A DNA stretch of 64,000 nt from Dehalococcoidia bacterium (GCA_965213725.1 OZ243924.1:1072716-1136715); one strand, 5' to 3'; shown: positions 661-13,694, counted from the first letter of the stretch. A program made the numbers and translations. The notes: generated by a model from the sequence alone, not told the origin.

Positions 661-2493
661 CTACTCGATCTCCCGGAAGCTGCTCAGGATCTCCTCCTGC
701 TGCTGGCCGTATACGAGCAGGTCAGCTTGGCAGATGCCCGTGGAGATGAAGAAGCCGTAATCCTCCGGAGCGTTCCATGAGTGATAGGCGTGGTCTACCA
801 CGTGATACCGGCAATCTCCCTCTTGGGGCTGCCAGATGTATTCCCAATAAATATATTCGCCTCCGCCGCCGCTATCCAGCGGCTTAAAATAAGCGTGGGT
901 TCGGGCATTGTCTCGCTTCGACACTCTTTCACGATAGGCAAAACCGAATCGCCCATCCCCGTCCTTAACATTCAGGATAACGATGTTCAGATAGGGCCGC
1001 CCCCCGGCGGAAGGCGCGTCGGCGCCCCAAGCCCAGCTTCCGCCGTGTCTTATGGAGTATTTGTGCGTATTCCCCCCGTGGGTGAAGGTAAACTCCTGCT
1101 GGGGCAGCGGCCCGGGCGTTGGCGTCGGCTTGGGCGTTGGCGTCGGCGTCGGCGTCGGCTTGGGCATCGGCGTGGGCGTTGGCGTTGGCGTCGGCTTGGG
1201 CGTTGGCGTCGGCGTCGGTGTAGGCGTAGGCGTCGGCGTCGGCTTGGGCGTCGGCTTGGGCGTGGGCGTCGGTGTGGGAACTGAGGGCGTGGGTGTAGGC
1301 GTCGAGGTGGGTGTAGGCGTCGGGGTTGGCGTGGGCGTGGGGGTAGACCGCGGCGTCGGCACGGGAGTTGCTGCGGGCGTCCTGCCGGCGGGGCGGCCGG
1401 TTCCTATAGCATCCATCCACTGGATGAACCTGTCTAGCGGCACGGCCAGTTCCAATCGCTCCGCCGCCGGGTTTGCTGCCGTATTGATTCCGACAATACG
1501 CCCGGCGTTGTTGAGCAGCGGGCCGCCGGAACTGCCGGATTCCACATCTGCGCCATGCTCGATAAAATATCCGCCCCTGTATTGCTCAAGGCCGTCTTGC
1601 ACAATCGTGCCTTCCGTTACCACCGGCTCGGAGACCGTAACCCCGCGGCCGGCTTTGTTGCCGCCGGGATAGCCGGAGGCGTATACCACATCGCCCTTGG
1701 CCCAACTGCCGCCCCAGCCATTCCAGTTTGAGAGTGTTTTCCGAAGACCTGGGGTTGAATTCATCCACCGAGTAAATATCTCATGTTCGATTACCGCTAT
1801 ATCGAAATCCCTGTCCGTGGCCGAAACCTGGCCGGTAACACATTCTTGCGTTAAGGCCCAGCACACCCTGACATCAGAATCACCCGCGACAACGTGCTGG
1901 CTGGTTGCTACCACGTAGTCGGGTGCGTCCCCGGATACTGCGTTCGCTCTGTTATAGAAAAACCCCGATCCCGTGCCGCTCGACGTTTCAATGTAAACAG
2001 TCAATGCAGCCGCAGTTTGCTTCATTCCCAGGGATTGAGCTAAAAGAGGGGTGGGCGCAGGCGTGGGCCGCGGCGCCGCAGGCGTGGGCGTGGGCTGCGG
2101 CGTTGCCGCAGGCGTTACGGTGGGAGGCGGGGCTAGGGTGAGCGTGGGCCGCGGCGTTGCCGTAGGCATGGCGGCGGCAGCGGCGGCGGGGCGGGCTTGG
2201 ATGGTGGCTTCCGGGGCGTCGGTCGCCACCGGCAGGGGGGCGACCGTGGGTAGCGGAGTGGCGGCGGGCCGGTTAGCCGGCGTCGAACCGCCATTCCCTC
2301 CGTTGCCATCATCCCTTACCAGCAGCACGGCGACGACAATGGCGATGGCGGCCACGGCTATGACAGCGGCGAGGGTACGGATGCAGCCGCCCCGGAACAT
2401 TGTTGTGGACGGGGGCGGCGCCGTCGCCGTGCCGCAATAGGCGCAGAACTTGACCGTGGGCGGGATGGTTCGCTGACAGTTGCGGCACCGCAT
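661..2493 (-). CDS. membrane-anchored trypsin-like serine protease with N-terminal zinc ribbon, P/T-rich linkers and an unknown C-terminal domain
   Basis: N-terminus [21 protein letters not shown] (CxxC..CxxC). TM segment [22 protein letters not shown]. Protease triad context SQHVV / DFDIAVIE / GSSGGPLL. Start lies 10 nt after the kinase stop. Confidence 0.8.
1105..1375 (-). repeat. low-complexity coding repeat encoding a (TP/KP)n linker
   Basis: Periodic ggcgtcggc/ggcttgggc units translate on the minus strand to [16 protein letters not shown]... Three overlapping shadow ORFs arise from this periodicity. Confidence 0.85.
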
Positions 2494-2503
2494 CGCGGGC
2501 GGC

Positions 2504-3718
2504 TCAGGCCGCCTTTCTCCCGCAATCGTGGCAGTAAGCGGCGTTGACCGGCCCGCCTATCCCGCAGTAGGCGCAAGGGCGGCTGCCCGGTTGCAGCGTC
2601 GCGCAGCATTTCTCTTGGTCGCAGTAGATCAGATCGTTCAGATTCATATGGCCGCATTGAGGACAAGCGACAGCCCCGATAGGCGGCGGCGCGGGCGGCG
2701 GCGGGGCGGCCTGTCCGCTCTGAAGCAGATCCCGGTACGAAGATGAGCCGGGCGCCGCCGGGGCCGGTTGGGGCGCCGGGGCCGGTTGGGGCGGGGGCGC
2801 GGCGTTCCCGCCGCTCAGGATGCTTTCCAAATCCGGCACCTGCTCCACCGGAAGGGCGCAATACTCTTCCAGCTTTGCCGCCAGATTGCGTACAGCGTCG
2901 TCCGGGTTGTTTCTCAGCGCGCGGAAACAGTCGGAATTCGCCGGGTCTTGATAATCGCTTTTCTTGAGAATCAGGTTATCGTCGTTATTAAACTGCTGCC
3001 ACAAGTCCGGCTGGGCGGCCAAAGCCCGCAGGCTGAGATAAATTACGAACGCCGGAAAATTGTCTATGCGTTCATCATAATTACCGGAGTCCCGCTGGGG
3101 ATGCTGAAAATTCTGATGCCCGATTTCCGGGCTGCGTTCCCCCTGATACTGCGGCAGAAACACGCCATCGTAATCCACCAGCCGGATGGTGCCGTCGTCC
3201 TGCACCATAATGTTGCCGTGTTGCAGGTCGTTGTGGGCGATAGCCACCCGGTTATGTTGCAGACTATCGGCTACTCCCTTCCATCGCCGGACTATGCGGG
3301 ATAGCGTGCCGGGCGCGTTCAGATGGACGGGCGCGTTAATCTGATTGCGAACGTATTTGTCCAGCGCGTTGCCGTTGACCCAATCCATTTTGATGATGGG
3401 ATACCATTGCCCCCGCACCATGATTCCCTCTGGATGAAACTCAAACTCTACAAAAGCCGGGGGCAGGCTCCCTTGCAGAAAGGCGTGCAGATGGTCGTAC
3501 CGCGCCTGCTGGTTATTCACCGGGCGGGTGAAACAGCGGACGGCGTAAACGGCGCCGTTGCAGGAGACTTTGTACACCGACGCAAAGTTTCCCGACCAAA
3601 CCAGTTTCCGGCCCCGCGGGTCAGCCTCCGCCTCGCCGCCGCAAAGATCCTGATCCCGAAAACACAGCTTCGGGTTCTGAATGGCGTCGGTATAGTCGGT
3701 TACATTGGGCCACGGCAT
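2504..3718 (-). CDS. atypical Ser/Thr protein kinase-like protein with C-terminal double zinc ribbon
   Basis: ATG at 3718 (MPWPNV) preceded by GAGGGGA. Motifs [27 protein letters not shown] and LVDYDG. P/A-rich linker, then CPQCG..YCDQ..CAYCG..CHDCG. The ORF-track N-terminal extension to 4270 overlaps the upstream gene. Confidence 0.8.
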
Positions 3719-3741
3719 AGCTTCCCCTCGCTCTTGGGGAT

Positions 3742-4503
3742 TTATTCGACCTTGATGGTGATCAGAGTGGTGTCGTCGTTTCGCATCGCCCGCCCGGCGC
3801 GTTTTGCTTGCAGCCAGGCTTCCCACTGTTGCGGCGAATCCAGGGACAGCAGCGTTTCCCACGGCTTGCCGCCGGATTCTTGTTCTTGCAGAATCCAGCA
3901 GGCCAGGGCGTCGGACGCCAGTATCAGCCGGTCGCCCCTCCGGCATTGGCCGTTCATTTGGCGAACTTTGGGCCACAGCCCGCCGTTGTTGGCCGGGTTG
4001 CTGCAGATCAAGGGCGGGGTGTCGTTGAAGCTCCCGGCGTTGTCCATCGGGAAAGACCGGGCGAGGGCGCTGTCGCGGATGACGAAAAGGCAGCAGTCGC
4101 CGACGGCCACAGCCCGCCAAGGGTAGACGCCGGGGCGGGCCGGGGTTTGGGCAAGCTCCAGCCCCAGCAGCGTTGACAGAGCGCCGGCCCGGGTCTTGGC
4201 TTCGCCGTGCCAGGGGATGCGCGGCCACGGCACCGCCCGATTCCATTCCTCTTGGGGCTGTATCAGCCACCGGGACAAGGATGCGCCGTCGAGGTTGGAA
4301 AGATCAAGGGGACGGTAGATAAAGGCGCGGGTCAGCGCTTGCGCCCACGGCCGGGCGAAGGCGGACTCGGTGGCGCCGTCGCACAGAGCGATTCTGGCCG
4401 GGCCGCCATTGGCCGGGTAGCTGATCCGGGAATCGTCCTCGCACTCGTCAGGGCGGTTGCCCGCTTTGGCCGTCTGAAATCTTCGCGGCGGTAGCAGTCC
4501 CAT
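3742..4503 (-). CDS. PP2C-family (SpoIIE-like) protein phosphatase
   Basis: ATG at 4503 preceded by AAGGAGG, 10 nt after the vWA stop. Motifs IALCDGATES, VAVGDCCLFV, LILASDAL and RNDDTTLITI. Confidence 0.8.
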   Translation of the reverse strand: MGLLPPRRFQTAKAGNRPDECEDDSRISYPANGGPARIALCDGATESAFARPWAQALTRAFIYRPLDLSNLDGASLSRWLIQPQEEWNRAVPWPRIPWHGEAKTRAGALSTLLGLELAQTPARPGVYPWRAVAVGDCCLFVIRDSALARSFPMDNAGSFNDTPPLICSNPANNGGLWPKVRQMNGQCRRGDRLILASDALACWILQEQESGGKPWETLLSLDSPQQWEAWLQAKRAGRAMRNDDTTLITIKVE

Positions 4504-4513
4504 CGGAGCCTCC

Positions 4514-5380
4514 TTAATGCAGGTTGAGGTCGGACGCGGCCCTGGTGCCAATTTCGAGGAACTGCACCAGAGCATCCATATCGGCGTTGAAAACGTACCC
4601 CCGCGAATTGTTGCTGATGGACAGGTCCATGGCGGAAGCTTGGGCGCGGCTGGATTCGGGCAGCACCGACGACATTCGGAACAACACCTTGGCATATTCG
4701 TCATCCCGGGGGAGGGCGTCCTCACGGTCGGGATACTGCACTGGCAATGCCGAAACTTCGGAAAGGTGAATATTGAACACCAGCGCGTTGCCGTCGCCGG
4801 TCTGCATTCCCATTATCCGCTGGGCCGGCGGTTCCGGGTCGCCGTCGGTGGCGGCGCCATCGCTGACGTTTATGATGATGGGCGGGAAGGAGTCGGGATG
4901 TTGGGCAATCCAGTTTTCGACGGAGCGGGCGGCGGTTTGGAAGGCGGCGCACATAGGCGTGCCGTATTCGGCGTGGGGATGCAACCAGACGGGCATCTGC
5001 CGGGTAACTTCCACTAGGCCGCCGGCCCCGTCGCTTACCTTCACTTGCATTTCCACCATTTCGGCCACATCGACCACTTGGCTGATGGGCAGGAAGGGCT
5101 GATCCCGGGATGTTCCTTGCAGGATGCTGCTGATTATGGAGCTGCCGATTGAGTCGGTGCAGTAGCCGATGATGCCAATGTCGAAGTAATCGCGGACGTC
5201 CATTCCCTGGGAGCAGCGCTGGGACACGGTGTCCAGAATCCGGTTGATGGCGGCAGCGGCCTGGTCCATCTTGCGCTGGCCGGGCTGGCCGGCGAGGGCT
5301 TGGGTCATGGATCCGGACTGGTCTATGAGGAACAGGAAACAGGCGGGGTTGGCGCGGCTGATGTCGGCGGAATAGGGCAT
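4514..5380 (-). CDS. von Willebrand factor A (vWA) domain protein with MIDAS motif (TerY-like)
   Basis: FLFLIDQSGSM matches the DxSxS MIDAS motif and NVSDGAATDG lies later in the protein. AGGAGG upstream of ATG at 5380. Confidence 0.85.
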   Translation of the reverse strand: MPYSADISRANPACFLFLIDQSGSMTQALAGQPGQRKMDQAAAAINRILDTVSQRCSQGMDVRDYFDIGIIGYCTDSIGSSIISSILQGTSRDQPFLPISQVVDVAEMVEMQVKVSDGAGGLVEVTRQMPVWLHPHAEYGTPMCAAFQTAARSVENWIAQHPDSFPPIIINVSDGAATDGDPEPPAQRIMGMQTGDGNALVFNIHLSEVSALPVQYPDREDALPRDDEYAKVLFRMSSVLPESSRAQASAMDLSISNNSRGYVFNADMDALVQFLEIGTRAASDLNLH

Positions 5381-5445
5381 TTCGGGGCCTCCTGCGGGGT
5401 TTCGCGGTATGCGCCGGATTGTTTGGTATCATAGGCAAGGGATTT

Positions 5446-6087
5446 ATGGATAGTCAAACTGGCTCTGCCATCACAACGGCATCACCCGCCGCCCGCCTGC
5501 CCCGGCCGTCCCCCCAGTTGGCGGCGGCGGCGCTGCTGCTGGCCGCGGGCCTGGCGGCGCTGCTGGCCTGGGGCGGCGGATTGCCGCCGGCTCAGAATCT
5601 GGAGCCGGGCGGCGTTCCCGCCTTTCGCTATGTCAACAGCGGGTGGGTCTCGCCGCTGGACTGGCAGGAGGCCGGCCCCTTCGCCGCGGAGCTGCGGGCC
5701 TTTGTCATCGGCAGCCAGGAAGAGCTGGACGCCTTTGAGGAGGGCTTCGTCAGCAAGCGGATTTACGGCAACGCCACCACCCTGGAGCGCATCGAGTTCG
5801 ACCGCGTGGCGTTGCTGGCGGCCTACTATGTCTGGCGTCCGGTGCGGGGCGACCCGCTGTCGGTGGCCGGCTTGCAACTGGAGCAAGAGCGGGCGGTGGT
5901 GCAGGTTGAGCTGGACGAAGACCCGCAGGGACGCGAGTACCCCTACCTGTTCGCGCCGATGATTATGGTGGCGGTGGAACGCTCGCTGTTCCCGGAGGGC
6001 GAGCCGGTGGAGTTCGTCTTTGAGCTGAACGGCCGACCCGAGGTCATACGGACTGCCACGCCGAACCCGGCGGCCCCCTCTTCCTGA
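5446..6087 (+). CDS. hypothetical secreted or membrane-anchored protein
   Basis: ATG at 5446 inside an ORF whose track start is TTG at 5419. Hydrophobic LAAAALLLAAGLAALLAWGG near the N-terminus. Divergent from the vWA operon. Confidence 0.55.
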   Translation: MDSQTGSAITTASPAARLPRPSPQLAAAALLLAAGLAALLAWGGGLPPAQNLEPGGVPAFRYVNSGWVSPLDWQEAGPFAAELRAFVIGSQEELDAFEEGFVSKRIYGNATTLERIEFDRVALLAAYYVWRPVRGDPLSVAGLQLEQERAVVQVELDEDPQGREYPYLFAPMIMVAVERSLFPEGEPVEFVFELNGRPEVIRTATPNPAAPSS

Positions 6088-9424: not shown

Positions 9425-9841
9425 ATGATGGTAATGTATTTTCCCCAGACGGATTCAATCAGCCTCCACAGTGGGGAGAATGGTGAGGGCGAGGGCGACT
9501 GGTTGTTAAACGACCACCGGGTCACCTTGAGCTTTACGGGGGAACAGAACGGCCCCGTCAATGGGGTGGAAGTATTTGACATTACCGGCCGCTACCTACC
9601 CCTAGCGCCGGAGCGCGGCTATGATGCCGCAACCGACACCTTGACCTTGTGCAAAAAGTCGGCTGGCAACCTCCGGGTGGTGGAGAACGGCGAGTTCGTA
9701 CTCTACATACTGCCAGACAACCGTGAGGATTGGGAATGGCCGGTAGCCCTAGACATACGCAACGCGTCCAAGCACCTAGGCGAGGTGAACGAGACCATCA
9801 TCCGCAAGCTGAAACAGGAATCCGAGTCCAGCGCGGGCTAG
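9425..9841 (+). CDS. DUF2283-like protein (two repeats)
   Basis: GGAGGTGA RBS. YFPQTDSISL...VNGVEVFD and YDAATDTLTL...ALDIRNASKHL resemble the YuzE/DUF2283 pattern. Confidence 0.55.
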   Translation: MMVMYFPQTDSISLHSGENGEGEGDWLLNDHRVTLSFTGEQNGPVNGVEVFDITGRYLPLAPERGYDAATDTLTLCKKSAGNLRVVENGEFVLYILPDNREDWEWPVALDIRNASKHLGEVNETIIRKLKQESESSAG

Positions 9842-9990
9842 GGCCTGCGCACACACGGAGGGATGGGAGAGCGGATATTCCACCAGACTGTAATCTGGCG
9901 CCCAAAGGGATTTTCCGCCCGTCAATTCGCCTCTTTCGCCAGCATCCTGTTGTATATTATGACCATGCCGCGGAGAGGGACTGCCCGGTA

Positions 9991-10881
9991 ATGCTTGAAT
10001 TTAACCATTTCCGCAAGGCCCGTATAGCGAGGTTCGGATATATGACTGCTTTGCAAGGTCATCCCGCATACAGGATGGGCGAGCGTTACGGGGATCACCC
10101 GGACGACGGCCAGTATCCGGGGACTCTGATTATTGTTGAGGGCATTGACGGCTCAGGCAAGAGCACCCAGATTGACCTGTTGCAAAAATGGCTCAGGAGC
10201 CGCAACCTGGTAACAGTGTTCACGGAATGGAACTCTTCGCCCATCGTCAAGCGCACCACCAAGCAGGCGAAGGTCAGGGAACTCCTTACCCCGATGTCTT
10301 TCAGCCTCATCCACGCCGCGGATTTCGCCAGCCGGGTACACGCGCAGATTCTGCCGGCCCTGCGGGCCGGGGCAATTGTGCTGGCCGACCGCTACGTCTA
10401 CACCGCCTTTGCCAGGGATGCAACGCGGGGCGTGAACCGCGACTGGGTGCGGCGCATTTACTCCTTTGCGGTCAAGCCCTCGCTGAGCTTGTACTTCAGA
10501 GTCCCGCTGGACGTTTCCATTGAACGGCTCAATGCCGGGCGAACGGAACTCAAGTATTATGAGGCCGGCCAGGATATGGGCTTCTCCAGCGACCGGGAAG
10601 AATCCTTCCGCATCTTCCAGAGCAAACTGCTGGACGAGTACGAGGGCCTGACCGAAGAATTTGGCCTGATGACCATTGACGCCACCCTGCCCATCGCGGT
10701 GCAGCAACAGCAGGTGCGGCGCTACGTCGAACCGCTGATCGAGGACGCCATGGAAGTGGGGGGGCAGACCGTGCCCGAGGCGTTGGGCAGCGCCGGCCTG
10801 ACCGGGCGCTACATCACCGATCCCCCGCGCCGGAGGCTCACCGAGCAGGATATTCTGCTTCAGCAAAACGGAAAAGGATAA
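9991..10881 (+). CDS. thymidylate kinase-like protein, paralog 1 (extended termini)
   Basis: P-loop IVEGIDGSGKSTQ and DRY-type LADRYVYT. ATG at 9991 after GGAGAGGGA. The track ORF start at 9730 overlaps the upstream gene. Confidence 0.75.
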   Translation: MLEFNHFRKARIARFGYMTALQGHPAYRMGERYGDHPDDGQYPGTLIIVEGIDGSGKSTQIDLLQKWLRSRNLVTVFTEWNSSPIVKRTTKQAKVRELLTPMSFSLIHAADFASRVHAQILPALRAGAIVLADRYVYTAFARDATRGVNRDWVRRIYSFAVKPSLSLYFRVPLDVSIERLNAGRTELKYYEAGQDMGFSSDREESFRIFQSKLLDEYEGLTEEFGLMTIDATLPIAVQQQQVRRYVEPLIEDAMEVGGQTVPEALGSAGLTGRYITDPPRRRLTEQDILLQQNGKG

Positions 10882-10884
10882 GGA

Positions 10885-10922
10885 GCGTGTCTCCCCAGCA
10901 GCAGCGTGTCTCCCCAGCAGCA
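10885..10922. repeat. perfect 19-bp tandem duplication between the two tmk-like genes
   Basis: gcgtgtctccccagcagca occurs twice, back to back. Confidence 0.95.
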
Positions 10923-10947
10923 TTGCGCAGCGGGGCAGTGAAGTGAA

Positions 10948-11646
10948 ATGAGCAGGTTGAGCTTCTACGGCCATACCCCGCCGGGGATTGACGCCGAATC
11001 CGTGCCGGGCCGTCTTATCGTGATAGAGGGCACCGATGGCGTGGGGCGTTCGACGCAGATTGCGATGTTGCAGGAATGGCTGGAGTCCGAGGGCTATGCC
11101 GTGCTGGTCACCGGATTCCGCCGTTCGGAACTGGCCGCGTCAGGAATAGACCGGGCCATGCGGGGCAACACGCTGGACGCCCTCACCCTGAATCTGTTCT
11201 ACGCCACCGATTTCTGGGACCGCCTGGAAAAGAACATCCTCCCGGCCCTCCGCACTGGCATGGTGGCCCTAGTGGACCGTTACATCTTCTCCGTCATCGC
11301 CAGGGCGAGGGTGCGCGGAGTGCCGGCCGGCTGGCTGAACGACGTCTTCGAGTTCGCCGTGGTGCCGGACCGCGTGCTGTTTCTCGACGTGGACGTGGAG
11401 CATCTCCTGCCCAGAGTGCTGTCGGTGCGCCAACTGGACCATTGGGAATCCGGCGAGGATTTCCTGCGCGGGCCGGACCTGTATGACAACTTCATCCGCT
11501 ACCAGGGCGCGTTGATTGAAGAGTTCCGCAGCTTGGCCCAAAAGCACAATTTCGTGACCGTGGACGCCCGGCGCAGCGTGGGGGACGTATTCCGGGCGCT
11601 GCAAAGCGAAATCCGGGAAGTGCTGGGGGGAATGAGCGAGCAATAA
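10948..11646 (+). CDS. thymidylate kinase-like protein, paralog 2 (P-loop Lys replaced by Arg)
   Basis: VIEGTDGVGRSTQ has GR in place of GK. VDRYIFS is present. Same fold signature as paralog 1. Confidence 0.75.
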   Translation: MSRLSFYGHTPPGIDAESVPGRLIVIEGTDGVGRSTQIAMLQEWLESEGYAVLVTGFRRSELAASGIDRAMRGNTLDALTLNLFYATDFWDRLEKNILPALRTGMVALVDRYIFSVIARARVRGVPAGWLNDVFEFAVVPDRVLFLDVDVEHLLPRVLSVRQLDHWESGEDFLRGPDLYDNFIRYQGALIEEFRSLAQKHNFVTVDARRSVGDVFRALQSEIREVLGGMSEQ

Positions 11647-11786
11647 CCTCCACGCTACGGGGCAGTCATGCCCCGGCGCGAATATATGCCCGGTCTTGTG
11701 AAGCCCGTTCGCCGGGGCCGGGGCGCGGGAACCGGCCGCCGAGGAAAGCGTGAACTTGACCGGCCGCGCCTAGCTGACAACGCCCC

Positions 11787-12149
11787 CTAATCCTCCACCA
11801 GCGTCCGCGTCACGTCCACCGTGGCATACGACCAAGCAATGCGGAAAGGCCCCTCGCCGGTGTTTATCAGTCGGTGGCGGGTTCCGGGGGTGATGAAGGC
11901 GGCGTCGCCTGCCCCAACCCGGTGTTCCGCGCCGTTGATCATCAGGATGCCCTGGCCCTCGATGACGATCACCGACTCTTCGGCGTTGTGGTAGTGAGTA
12001 GTATTGGAGCAGCCAGGGTCAAAGCCGGTGATGCCGCTGGAAATCTCCGTCGCGCCGAATTCCTTGTTGATGTGGCTGGCAACGGTCACTCCCTCGGCCC
12101 GTTGCAGTTGCGGCACTTCCTCGCCGCGAATCACTCTCGGCTCCGGCAT
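11787..12149 (-). CDS. cupin domain protein
   Basis: ATG at 12149 after GAGGAGGGAAG. Cupin motifs TTHYHNAEESVIVIEG and AAFITPGTRHRLIN. Confidence 0.8.
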   Translation of the reverse strand: MPEPRVIRGEEVPQLQRAEGVTVASHINKEFGATEISSGITGFDPGCSNTTHYHNAEESVIVIEGQGILMINGAEHRVGAGDAAFITPGTRHRLINTGEGPFRIAWSYATVDVTRTLVED

Positions 12150-12239
12150 AGCTTCCCTCCTCGATTTTATCAAACGCCGGGCGCGCAAAGAGCGCCGGGT
12201 TTATTTCCGCTTTTCTTGGCGCTCTTGGCGTTTAATCAA

Positions 12240-13694
12240 TTACTCCTGTTCCAAGAACCGGCGCACCCAATCGGCATGGGGCTGGCGGTCTTTCATATTA
12301 TAGAGGATGACGGCGTTGCGGACGGAATCGGCTTGGAAGAAACGCTCGTAGAGTATCTGACGCGCTCCGAAAGCGCTGCATGACACGTCCCAGGCCAAGC
12401 GGAAGAGGCGCACCCGATCGCGGGCCGAGGCAGTGTCGGTTTCCAGGTAACGGTTGATTTCCGCGGCCAGCGGGCCTTCCAAGTCGGCCTCGGTGGGCAG
12501 GGCCATCAGGCTGCTGGAACCCAGCAGGTGGATGATCTCGCCCATACGCGGGTACATACGGATGAACAGGTTGCGGGCGGCTTGCAGGGGCAGTTCCGCC
12601 GGGGCCATCACGCCCCAGCGGTCTACGGCGGCGTCGGTCTCGGCGGCCCGCAGGCAGGCTTTGGTGACCTCCAGGTTCTCGATGATTTCGGCGATCATCT
12701 GCTGCGCCTGCTGCTGTTGCGTCGAGCCCAGCGCTTCGGTCATCAGCGTCGCCAGGCCCAGCACGAACTCGCACTTGGCGACGTTCTTGGTGACCACCTG
12801 GTGACCGGAATGCAGATGGCGGTTGGTGGCGATCTGCAAGTTGTTGCACAACTCCACGTCGCCCAGCAGAAACACCCGCTCCCAGGGCACCAGCACGTGG
12901 TCGAAAAAGGCCACGGCGTCCATTTCCTCGAACCGCGAACCCAAGGGGTGGTCGAAGCGGGAGCCGCCGTAGTCGAAGCTCTCGCGGCACTGGAAGCGCA
13001 GGCCCGGCGTGTTGTTGGGCAGGGCGAAGGCGAAGGAATAGCGCTCCGGGGCCTGGCCCGGCAACTGGTGCGAGGTGGTGGGATACAGCGCGATTTCCTC
13101 GGACAGCGGGGCCAGGGTGGCCAGCACCCGCGCCCCGTTGACGATGATGCCGGCGTCGGTTTCCTTCTCCACCGACAGGGCCACGTCGGTGCGGTCTTCC
13201 AGTGGCGTGGCGCCGGGGGCGCGGCTGCGTTGCAGGTTCAGCAGCGTATGAGTCAGCACCAAGTCGTTCTCCCGCACGTGTTCGTAGTAGTTGTTGATGT
13301 TGTCCTTGAACTCAGGGCGGTTCTGGGCGAAATAATCCCCGGCGGCAGCCATAGCCATTATGTTGACGTTCATAAAGTCGGGGCTGCGGCCCATCATCCC
13401 AAAGGTGGAGCGCGCCCAGTGGCGCATCTGCACCCGGCGGGCCTCCAGGTCGGCCATGGTGCGGGGCAGTATGAAGGACGTTCCCACCCGGTCGCCGGTG
13501 GCGGGCGACACGTAGGTCATCTCGTCACGAAGGGCCGGGTCGTGCTGCATATCATAGAGCCGGGCCAGCGACTCCACCCCGCCCCGCAGCGCCGGATGGG
13601 TGGTGACGTCCTTCACCCGCTCGCCGTGCAGGTAGACCTCCGGCCCGTTCTCTTTGAGGTTGGCGATGTATTCCGCCCCGGTTCTGGCTGGCAT
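12240..13694 (-). CDS. 4-hydroxyphenylacetate 3-monooxygenase oxygenase-component family protein (HpaB-like)
   Basis: 484 aa. N-terminus TGAEYIANLKENGPEVYLHGERVKDVTTHPALR and the central region are typical of the HpaB/group D flavin monooxygenase family. Confidence 0.8.
   Translation of the reverse strand: MPARTGAEYIANLKENGPEVYLHGERVKDVTTHPALRGGVESLARLYDMQHDPALRDEMTYVSPATGDRVGTSFILPRTMADLEARRVQMRHWARSTFGMMGRSPDFMNVNIMAMAAAGDYFAQNRPEFKDNINNYYEHVRENDLVLTHTLLNLQRSRAPGATPLEDRTDVALSVEKETDAGIIVNGARVLATLAPLSEEIALYPTTSHQLPGQAPERYSFAFALPNNTPGLRFQCRESFDYGGSRFDHPLGSRFEEMDAVAFFDHVLVPWERVFLLGDVELCNNLQIATNRHLHSGHQVVTKNVAKCEFVLGLATLMTEALGSTQQQQAQQMIAEIIENLEVTKACLRAAETDAAVDRWGVMAPAELPLQAARNLFIRMYPRMGEIIHLLGSSSLMALPTEADLEGPLAAEINRYLETDTASARDRVRLFRLAWDVSCSAFGARQILYERFFQADSVRNAVILYNMKDRQPHADWVRRFLEQE

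Follow-up and report, generated by a model that had tools for sequence, protein, structure and literature searches.

The 64,000-nucleotide stretch of Dehalococcoidia bacterium DNA analysed here (GCA_965213725.1 OZ243924.1:1072716-1136715; hereafter, the window) carries four co-directional genes at positions 661 to 5380. They encode a von Willebrand factor A (vWA) protein, a PP2C phosphatase, an atypical Ser/Thr kinase, and a fourth protein that combines a zinc ribbon, a membrane helix, and an extracytoplasmic serine protease. The first three correspond to the TerY-P triad, which, according to the summary in PMC11090510, was defined by Anantharaman, Iyer, and Aravind in 2012 as a TerY vWA protein, a PP2C phosphatase, and a Ser/Thr kinase with a C-terminal zinc ribbon. 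The window has the same three proteins in the same order in one tight, co-directional operon: a TerY vWA protein with its metal-ion-dependent adhesion site (MIDAS), an adjacent PP2C gene, and a kinase that ends in a zinc ribbon. It differs from the 2012 triad in an invariably attached fourth gene, whose product joins a zinc ribbon and a transmembrane helix to an ectodomain. The triad itself is already known and is a widespread signalling module; the variant with four or five genes is new.

The intergenic gaps measure exactly 10, 23, and 10 nucleotides, which confirms the gene coordinates and spacing given in an initial annotation of the window made from sequence alone. The start codons of the vWA and PP2C genes are preceded by AGGAGG and that of the kinase gene by GAGGGGAAG. 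As that annotation had also described, these three Shine-Dalgarno sequences are clear, and the sole such element at the start of the fourth gene is a distant GGGAG. The 10-nucleotide gap between the kinase and fourth genes recurs in seven distinct relatives' loci (L001, L002, L009, L011, L012, L016, and L023), suggesting that the two genes may be translationally coupled. Upstream of the vWA gene, a promoter-like site matches 10 of 12 consensus positions and sits in the short intergenic stretch that separates this gene from its divergent upstream neighbour. At the other end of the operon, a terminator-like hairpin has a 12-bp stem that includes A-U pairs, and a 67-nucleotide stretch here folds at -29 kcal/mol (z-score, -2.5). 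The gene order TerY-PP2C-kinase is the same in the great majority of the ~75 related loci with enough sequence. The tight four-gene operon is real and conserved, and its arrangement recurs far above chance expectation. Opposite-strand open reading frames inside the operon were considered as genes and rejected as artefacts that stem from the high GC content and from the repeats of the linker.

Table 1. Features of the operon and its immediate surroundings (window positions, counted from the first nucleotide of the stretch)
Feature	Position	Strand	Residues	Remarks
vWA gene	4514-5380	minus	288 aa	
PP2C gene	3742-4503	minus	253 aa	
Kinase gene	2504-3718	minus	404 aa	
Atypical TerY-P-type Ser/Thr kinase domain	2801-3718	minus	aa 1 to ~306	
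Pro-rich linker, kinase domain to zinc ribbon	~2666-2800	minus		
Kinase C-terminal double zinc ribbon	2519-2665	minus	aa 352-400	Pfam DZR, under cut-off
Fourth gene (protease-containing protein)	661-2493	minus	610 aa	
N-terminal zinc ribbon of fourth protein	2425-2487	minus	aa 3-23	MRCxNCxxxIPxxxxFCAYCG
Single transmembrane helix of fourth protein	2317-2385	minus	aa ~37-59	Hydropathy scan
Extracytoplasmic trypsin-like serine protease domain	1399-2031	minus	aa ~155-365	Trypsin_2, 1e-15
Pro/Thr-rich linker of fourth protein	1108-1398	minus		
C-terminal extracytoplasmic domain (CTD)	664-1107	minus	aa 463-610	Predicted PsbP/Mog1/DcrB/LpqN-like alpha-beta sandwich
Divergent gene	5419-6087	plus	213 aa, as called in L088	Likely ATG start at 5446
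Promoter-like site	5457-5428	minus		TTGACT-18 nt-TATGAT upstream of vWA gene; putative, consensus match alone
Terminator-like hairpin and U-run	~606-635	minus		Immediately after protease stop codon

The vWA protein matches the PADLOC TerY profile over its full length (1.4e-82), and a homolog search with it returned 2885 homologs. Its MIDAS motif reads DQSGSM, and D20, S22, S24, T141, and D174 are invariant across 28 homologs. The Pfam VWA_2 match lies under the Pfam cut-off, and an NCBIfam scan gave no match. The protein is TerY-like and cytoplasmic, with a complete MIDAS metal site. In six loci (L013, L014, L017-L019, and L061), two or three tandem TerY vWA paralogs stand upstream of the PP2C gene.

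The PP2C protein matches the PADLOC PP2C profile (2.9e-30). Scans of the protein itself against Pfam and NCBIfam gave no match, and the phosphatase call was therefore checked separately by structure prediction; many of its homologs carry PF13672. An AlphaFold2 model built on 29 homologs has a predicted local distance difference test score (pLDDT) of 94.6, and its top Foldseek matches are PBCP, RsbX, tPphA, PstP, PppA, SpoIIE, and Stp1, with E values of ~1e-8. D23, D42-G43, G135-D136, D198, and D243-D244 are invariant in the 29 homologs, the Asp residues being metal binding. The predicted structure confirms the protein as a PP2C-fold Ser/Thr phosphatase. When the PP2C and TerY alignments were run as profiles against PDB sequences, and TerY also as a single sequence, no significant match came back; the kinase returned only weak generic-kinase matches there (best E value, 0.003). 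Judging from these searches, there appears to be no solved structure for any TerY-P component.

The kinase matches the PADLOC STK_OB profile strongly (2.6e-71) but only over profile positions 1-299 of 562. It thus lacks the OB-fold part of the kinase of the validated anti-phage TerY-P system, and it ends instead in a double zinc ribbon. All kinases tested share this TerY-P kinase domain (STK_OB positions 1 to ~300), and the alignment reaches the OB region only in L070 (1-470). Against Pfam Pkinase the window protein scores 20.5 bits, under the 31.7 cut-off. The motifs AHNDLQHGN and VDYDG are conserved among 83 TerY-P-type kinases (family forms AHxDLQHGN and VDYD), and AVRCF (window 3520-3540, aa ~60-64) is conserved in at least 90% of them. 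Based on the location of AVRCF after the glycine-rich loop, rather than on a structure-based alignment, we take this motif to place an Arg at the canonical beta-3 Lys position, so that the active site would be atypical yet conserved. By this presumed position, the kinase departs from the canonical catalytic residue set of receptor-type (Hanks) kinases, which includes the beta-3 Lys. At the extreme C terminus, a CxxC...CxxC pattern is conserved in every zinc-ribbon-ended (type-A) kinase.

Kinase content varies among the relatives. L004, L005, and L065 encode a single 720-aa protein with two tandem TerY-P kinase domains followed by a zinc ribbon (L004 gene, 5819-7981). In L003 and L015 the kinases are encoded by two genes instead, and one of the products has a long coiled-coil-like tail; L017 and L018 have two kinases each, one ending in a zinc ribbon and the other with membrane segments of its own.

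The fourth protein opens with a zinc ribbon (Pfam Zn_Ribbon_1, 5e-05, near the cut-off), which is the best-conserved part of this gene across loci. From this ribbon to the membrane helix the chain is Ser/Thr rich, both in the window protein and in its relatives. Because the charge distribution follows the positive-inside pattern, with five K/R and no D/E residues ahead of the helix, the N terminus is predicted to lie inside and the zinc ribbon to be cytoplasmic. The His/Asp/Ser triad of the protease domain (GSSGGP) is intact and is conserved in every operon-linked trypsin ectodomain. A Pfam scan of the protein gave no PDZ domain match, and its NCBIfam HtrA/DegS scores are 25-52 bits against cut-offs of 408-470 (best, 52 versus 450). 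The window trypsin domain is 57% identical to that of a stand-alone secreted protease (P0005) and only ~28-33% identical to the trypsin domains of operon-linked relatives, whereas the window CTD is 64% identical to the CTD of L002. Together, these identities point to domain replacement within a retained architecture, and they indicate that the window trypsin domain was probably swapped in from a sublineage different from that of its relatives' domains.

The DNA of the Pro/Thr-rich linker contains a 6-nucleotide tandem array of ~40 copies (1115-1360). Short-read contigs of the near-identical relatives L001 and L088 stop inside the fourth gene, in or near the linker region, which explains the truncated 410- and 418-aa database versions of this protein that lack the CTD.

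The CTD, which the initial annotation had left unassignable, can be given a predicted fold. Its AlphaFold2 model has a pLDDT of 93.3 and matches CyanoP/PsbP, EagT6, MTC28, Mog1, LpqN, and DcrB in the PDB (Foldseek E values, 1.7e-4 to ~1e-2; template-modelling scores [TM-scores], ~0.45-0.64); a Pfam scan found no sequence-level family match. We therefore describe the fold as predicted PsbP/Mog1/DcrB-like, a resemblance in fold only that does not imply homology to that family. The predicted alpha-beta-alpha sandwich resembles that of PsbP, Mog1, DcrB, LpqN, MTC28, and DUF1795 (Eag) proteins, several of which are secreted or envelope proteins. In contrast to them, the CTD forms a rare family of its own (228 clusters among 1.84 billion representatives), with no detectable sequence similarity to them and with two invariant Cys residues. 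It is nearly always found at the C terminus of zinc-ribbon membrane proteins or of kinase-containing proteins. A metagenome contig scan with a narrowed CTD alignment yielded no confirmed relatives. Compared with viral structures, the model gives marginal matches to prophage-encoded "host cell surface-exposed lipoproteins" (Foldseek E value, ~1e-3; TM-score, at most 0.58).

To place the fourth gene in context, we turned to a TerY-anchored scan limited to one genome per species, which covers 79 loci. Most are from Dehalococcoidia and other Chloroflexota (57-74% identity); Bacillota, Planctomycetota, Pseudomonadota, and other groups contribute loci at 43-49%. A gene that opens with a zinc ribbon and continues into a membrane helix comes next in 20/20 loci with a zinc-ribbon-ended kinase and in 0/47 loci with another kinase tail. 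The zinc ribbon of this next gene has the consensus M[RK]CxxCxxxIPxxxxFCAYCG. What follows the helix varies: among the 20 loci, the ectodomain is trypsin plus CTD in six, trypsin alone in one, CTD alone in two, an OpuAC binding domain in two, WD40 in two, and a region without domain match in seven. The conserved partner of the zinc-ribbon-ended kinase is thus the zinc-ribbon-plus-helix anchor rather than the protease, and the ectodomain is interchangeable. A variable ectodomain on a constant anchor is the pattern expected of sensor modules.

Lookups in the reverse direction agree. All seven proteins with the full zinc ribbon-helix-trypsin-CTD architecture that were looked up lie directly after a TerY-PP2C-kinase triad (L001, L002, L003, L004/5, L089, L090, and L091). 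A zinc ribbon-CTD protein that lacks the protease likewise follows a TerY-P-type kinase with a zinc ribbon (L007), and a close trypsin homolog that lacks both zinc ribbon and CTD has no triad nearby (L008).

These comparisons bear out much of the initial annotation. Its four domain calls are matched by PADLOC TerY, PP2C, and STK_OB and by Pfam Trypsin_2, with AlphaFold2 and Foldseek adding to the PP2C call, and every motif it quoted for the MIDAS, the phosphatase, the kinase, and the protease is present on invariant family columns. Its assignment of the triad to TerY-P is upheld by the PADLOC matches and the gene order. The zinc ribbons it had noted in both the kinase and the protease protein are real, and they prove to be the key feature of the 20/20 versus 0/47 co-occurrence. 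It had further proposed that the protease is linked to the triad and extends it: the linkage holds in the neighbourhood check, but what is conserved in that extension is the zinc ribbon and helix.

The same parts also occur on one polypeptide. In most of the 47 loci with other kinase tails, the kinase has a membrane segment of its own; at least one hydrophobic segment marks the kinase tails of a sister clade within Dehalococcoidia and of most of the remaining phyla sampled. Several of these kinases also have an ectodomain: they carry a transmembrane segment with a PD40 propeller (L037) or with WD40 (L085 and L081), and in L031 and L038 a double zinc ribbon, a transmembrane segment, and an unassigned ectodomain all lie on the kinase polypeptide. 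WD40 occurs in both settings, on the kinase polypeptide in L085 and on the separate fourth protein in L072 and L075. The single-polypeptide arrangement of kinase, transmembrane segment, and extracellular sensor is thus present in L031, L037, L081, and L085, and in the window it is divided between two genes. That parts are fused in some relatives and split in others is a classic signature of parts that work as one unit. In a neighbor-joining tree of the kinases, the zinc-ribbon-ended and the transmembrane-segment-bearing kinases form sister clades, with a second, distant zinc-ribbon-ended pair (L072/L075). Taken at face value, the hydrophobic segments and anchors suggest that the TerY-P kinases sampled are mostly membrane tethered in one way or another, including the OB-type kinase of L070. 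The latter (11626-13251) has a hydrophobic segment near its C terminus in addition to its OB-region match, from which OB-type TerY-P kinases may be membrane tethered too. Trypsin plus CTD is also fused to ordinary Pkinase-domain proteins outside triads (P0022, P0030, and P0059). We considered the P0030 Pkinase-trypsin-CTD fusion as a Rosetta stone for TerY-P and rejected it, as it has an ordinary Pkinase domain and no triad genes detectable beside it.

Upstream of the operon, the product of a divergent gene combines a membrane anchor with an extracytoplasmic domain of ~150 aa that is highly conserved (FRYVNSGW...). This product is 58-84% identical in aligned relatives, and the gene is seen only beside loci whose fourth gene has the protease and/or the CTD. 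For the domain, Pfam gave no match, PDB sequences gave none of significance, and a profile comparison with the CTD showed no similarity. The product is a candidate partner or substrate for the protease/CTD ectodomain. In L004, L011, L012, and L063, an extra vWA paralog lies beyond the divergent gene.

The genes flanking the operon are housekeeping genes (ThiD, asparaginase, F420H2 quinone reductase, thymidylate kinases, and HpaB), and the visible flanks contain no ter genes, CoCoNuT/McrBC-like genes, or DNA-processing genes. The locus is syntenic across genomes with only ~66-70% TerY identity, which argues for vertical inheritance rather than for a mobile defence island. Two adjacent thymidylate-kinase-like genes adjoin a ThiD-like kinase gene on the plus strand (9730-11646), and the same trio near the operon in L090 supports long-range synteny of the chromosomal region. 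Viral contigs were also scanned, and no TerY relatives turned up on them. Given the absence of the OB fold from the kinase, the housekeeping flanks, the synteny, and this last result, the locus is easier to reconcile with a resident module for signalling than with a mobile defence island, and it is not a defence island of the typical sort.

We propose that the operon encodes a zinc-ribbon subtype of the TerY-P phospho-switch in which the kinase is coupled to the fourth protein as a detachable single-pass receptor subunit, a proposal to which we give an even chance of being right. The fourth protein would be oriented with its N terminus inside, placing its zinc ribbon in the cytoplasm and holding the protease and the PsbP-like domain outside on Pro/Thr-rich stalks. 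The C-terminal double zinc ribbon of the kinase would dock on this cytoplasmic zinc ribbon, directly or via a shared partner, and so tether the kinase to the membrane. An extracytoplasmic event, such as engagement of a ligand or substrate by the protease/PsbP-like module or, alternatively, cleavage of the co-conserved divergent membrane protein, would then alter kinase activity. Kinase and PP2C together would determine whether the TerY vWA protein, or else the Ser/Thr-rich juxtamembrane tail, is phosphorylated, and the phosphorylation state would switch MIDAS-dependent binding to a downstream target. For the last step, the output through TerY, we follow the Anantharaman et al. (2012) hypothesis in the form given by PMC11090510. 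What has been observed is the order of the genes, the identity of their domains, the strict zinc-ribbon co-occurrence, the variable ectodomains, and the fused relatives; the topology, the docking of one zinc ribbon on the other, the direction of signalling, and the TerY output we infer from them. The interchangeable ectodomains and the kinase fusions favour a receptor or sensor subunit over the proteolytic effector of the initial annotation, whose interpretation of the operon as a whole is partly supported. The biological role could be the sensing of envelope or extracellular cues or the surveillance of phage at the cell surface.

Several points weigh against this proposal. In the CoCoNuT paper (PMC11090510), the zinc ribbon of the TerY-P kinase is proposed to bind nucleic acid, and it could do so here instead of docking; the window data favour pairing with the zinc ribbon of a membrane protein. 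The sole experimentally established TerY-P role is phage defence, by a system whose kinase has an OB fold and which lacks a fourth gene. Most of the co-occurrence comes from a single Dehalococcoidia clade, joined by a small second clade (L072 and L075), so that few independent events in evolution stand behind the 20-versus-47 split. Transmembrane calls come from a simple hydropathy window, and the present results do not constrain the direction of signalling, whether outside-in or inside-out.

On a broader scale, and more tentatively, docking between zinc ribbons might define a class of split receptor Ser/Thr kinases that has so far gone unrecognised. The abundant proteins with an N-terminal zinc ribbon, a membrane helix, and a variable ectodomain found in Chloroflexota and other Terrabacteria would be plug-in receptors for such kinases, and TerY-P systems in general would be membrane-surveillance switches. 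We think this wider claim somewhat doubtful. If true, it would explain how the defence versions of TerY-P detect podophage infection at the envelope. For one large TerY-P branch, docking would be a concrete and testable answer to what the kinase tail does and where the signal is sensed, with the outer domain of the membrane protein as the sensor. TerY-P kinases would on this view be largely receptor-like and tethered to the membrane. Docking also offers a possible function for the very common proteins that consist of a zinc ribbon and a membrane helix. The parts list also gains a rare PsbP-like extracellular domain family and a conserved candidate partner protein.

The operon might instead be an anti-phage TerY-P variant whose membrane-anchored protease serves as an effector or a surface sensor, for example, by degrading phage receptor-binding proteins or host receptors or by reporting envelope damage during adsorption or injection. 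The three core proteins are strong matches to the PADLOC TerY-P models, and the kinase has the motifs AVRCF, HxDLQHGN, and DYD of that system. OB-fold TerY-P confers protection from T7-like/Autographiviridae phages, and the infected cells apparently do not die in the process (PMC7699616, summarising Gao 2020; bioRxiv 10.1101/2022.08.12.503731). Transposase, HicAB, or Uma2 genes lie near some relatives' loci, the ectodomain is fast evolving with swapped domains, and the fold of the CTD weakly resembles prophage surface lipoproteins, all of which would suit a role in conflict. However, the validated kinase ends in the OB fold that the window kinase lacks, and the window system adds the fourth membrane protein. 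The housekeeping flanks and the synteny speak for vertical descent, TerY relatives were not found on the viral contigs scanned, and OpuAC solute-binding ectodomains are hard to read as defence effectors. We regard this explanation as unlikely but not remote. 

Less probable still, in our view, is that the signal runs from the inside out, with TerY, PP2C, and kinase acting to phosphorylate the juxtamembrane tail of the fourth protein and thereby controlling how active or stable a surface protease is, or whether it is released; this protease would serve in envelope protein quality control, cell-surface remodelling, or nutrient acquisition. The Ser/Thr-rich segment ahead of the helix would provide the phosphorylation sites, every operon-linked trypsin ectodomain retains its catalytic triad, the protease is related to the HtrA/DegS type (with scores far under the family cut-offs), and the co-conserved divergent membrane protein could be its substrate. 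Yet non-enzymatic ectodomains (OpuAC, WD40, and CTD alone) occupy the same position and fit ligand sensing better, and the kinase-transmembrane-propeller fusions resemble classic receptor kinases. Finally, the fourth gene could be an unrelated neighbour that merely shares the triad's transcript. The weak, distant Shine-Dalgarno element at its start would fit this, as would the closest trypsin-domain homolog, a stand-alone secreted protease with no triad nearby (L008). Against it, a zinc ribbon-helix gene follows the zinc-ribbon-tailed kinase in every one of the 20 loci and in all seven reverse lookups, the 10-nucleotide spacing is conserved, and the association outlasts both replacement of the ectodomain and differing flanks. 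The comparative data effectively refute this explanation, and we assign it hardly any probability.

The split receptor kinase that we favour has counterparts among known systems. Bacterial receptor Ser/Thr kinases of the PknB/PASTA type have extracellular sensor domains, and the threonine-phosphorylation pathway of the type VI secretion system pairs PpkA, which has a periplasmic vWA domain, with the PP2C phosphatase PppA. Like these, the window locus pairs a kinase with a PP2C phosphatase and connects the two with a transmembrane segment and with an extracytoplasmic sensor that varies; PppA is itself among the structural matches of the window PP2C, and the one-polypeptide layout of PknB-type kinases is exactly that of the fused relatives L037, L085, and L031. 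In contrast, the receptor and kinase of the window are separate polypeptides that would be joined via their zinc ribbons, the kinase is atypical in its Arg at the presumed beta-3 Lys position, and the vWA protein is cytoplasmic and stands alone, unlike the vWA domain of PpkA. The fourth protein resembles DegS/HtrA in having an N-terminal anchor, an extracytoplasmic chymotrypsin-fold His/Asp/Ser protease, and a C-terminal noncatalytic domain that could gate the protease. It differs in having the PsbP-like domain in place of a PDZ domain, in profile scores far under the cut-offs, and in its N-terminal cytoplasmic zinc ribbon.

In the literature consulted, in which the primary TerY-P papers are represented by secondary summaries, we found no description of a fourth component with a zinc ribbon and membrane helix and no mechanism for TerY-P. 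The initial annotation's view of the module as uncharacterised thus stands as far as mechanism is concerned, but not for TerY-P as a whole, since the OB-fold form is known to be anti-phage.

Matches of the window proteins to the PADLOC PD-T4-6 and RT-Protease models were set aside as not meaningful, as they reflect generic kinase and trypsin folds and the low-complexity Pro/Thr-rich linker. A few of the relatives' loci are irregular. The L090 locus is partly fragmented. L089 (4099-5286) and L016 (13027-14858) both look like decaying copies. L089 has a DDE transposase between the PP2C and kinase genes and a split kinase. In L016, the fourth gene is seemingly frameshifted, since beyond a 155-aa open reading frame the trypsin and CTD matches lie in other frames; the shift may also be an assembly error.

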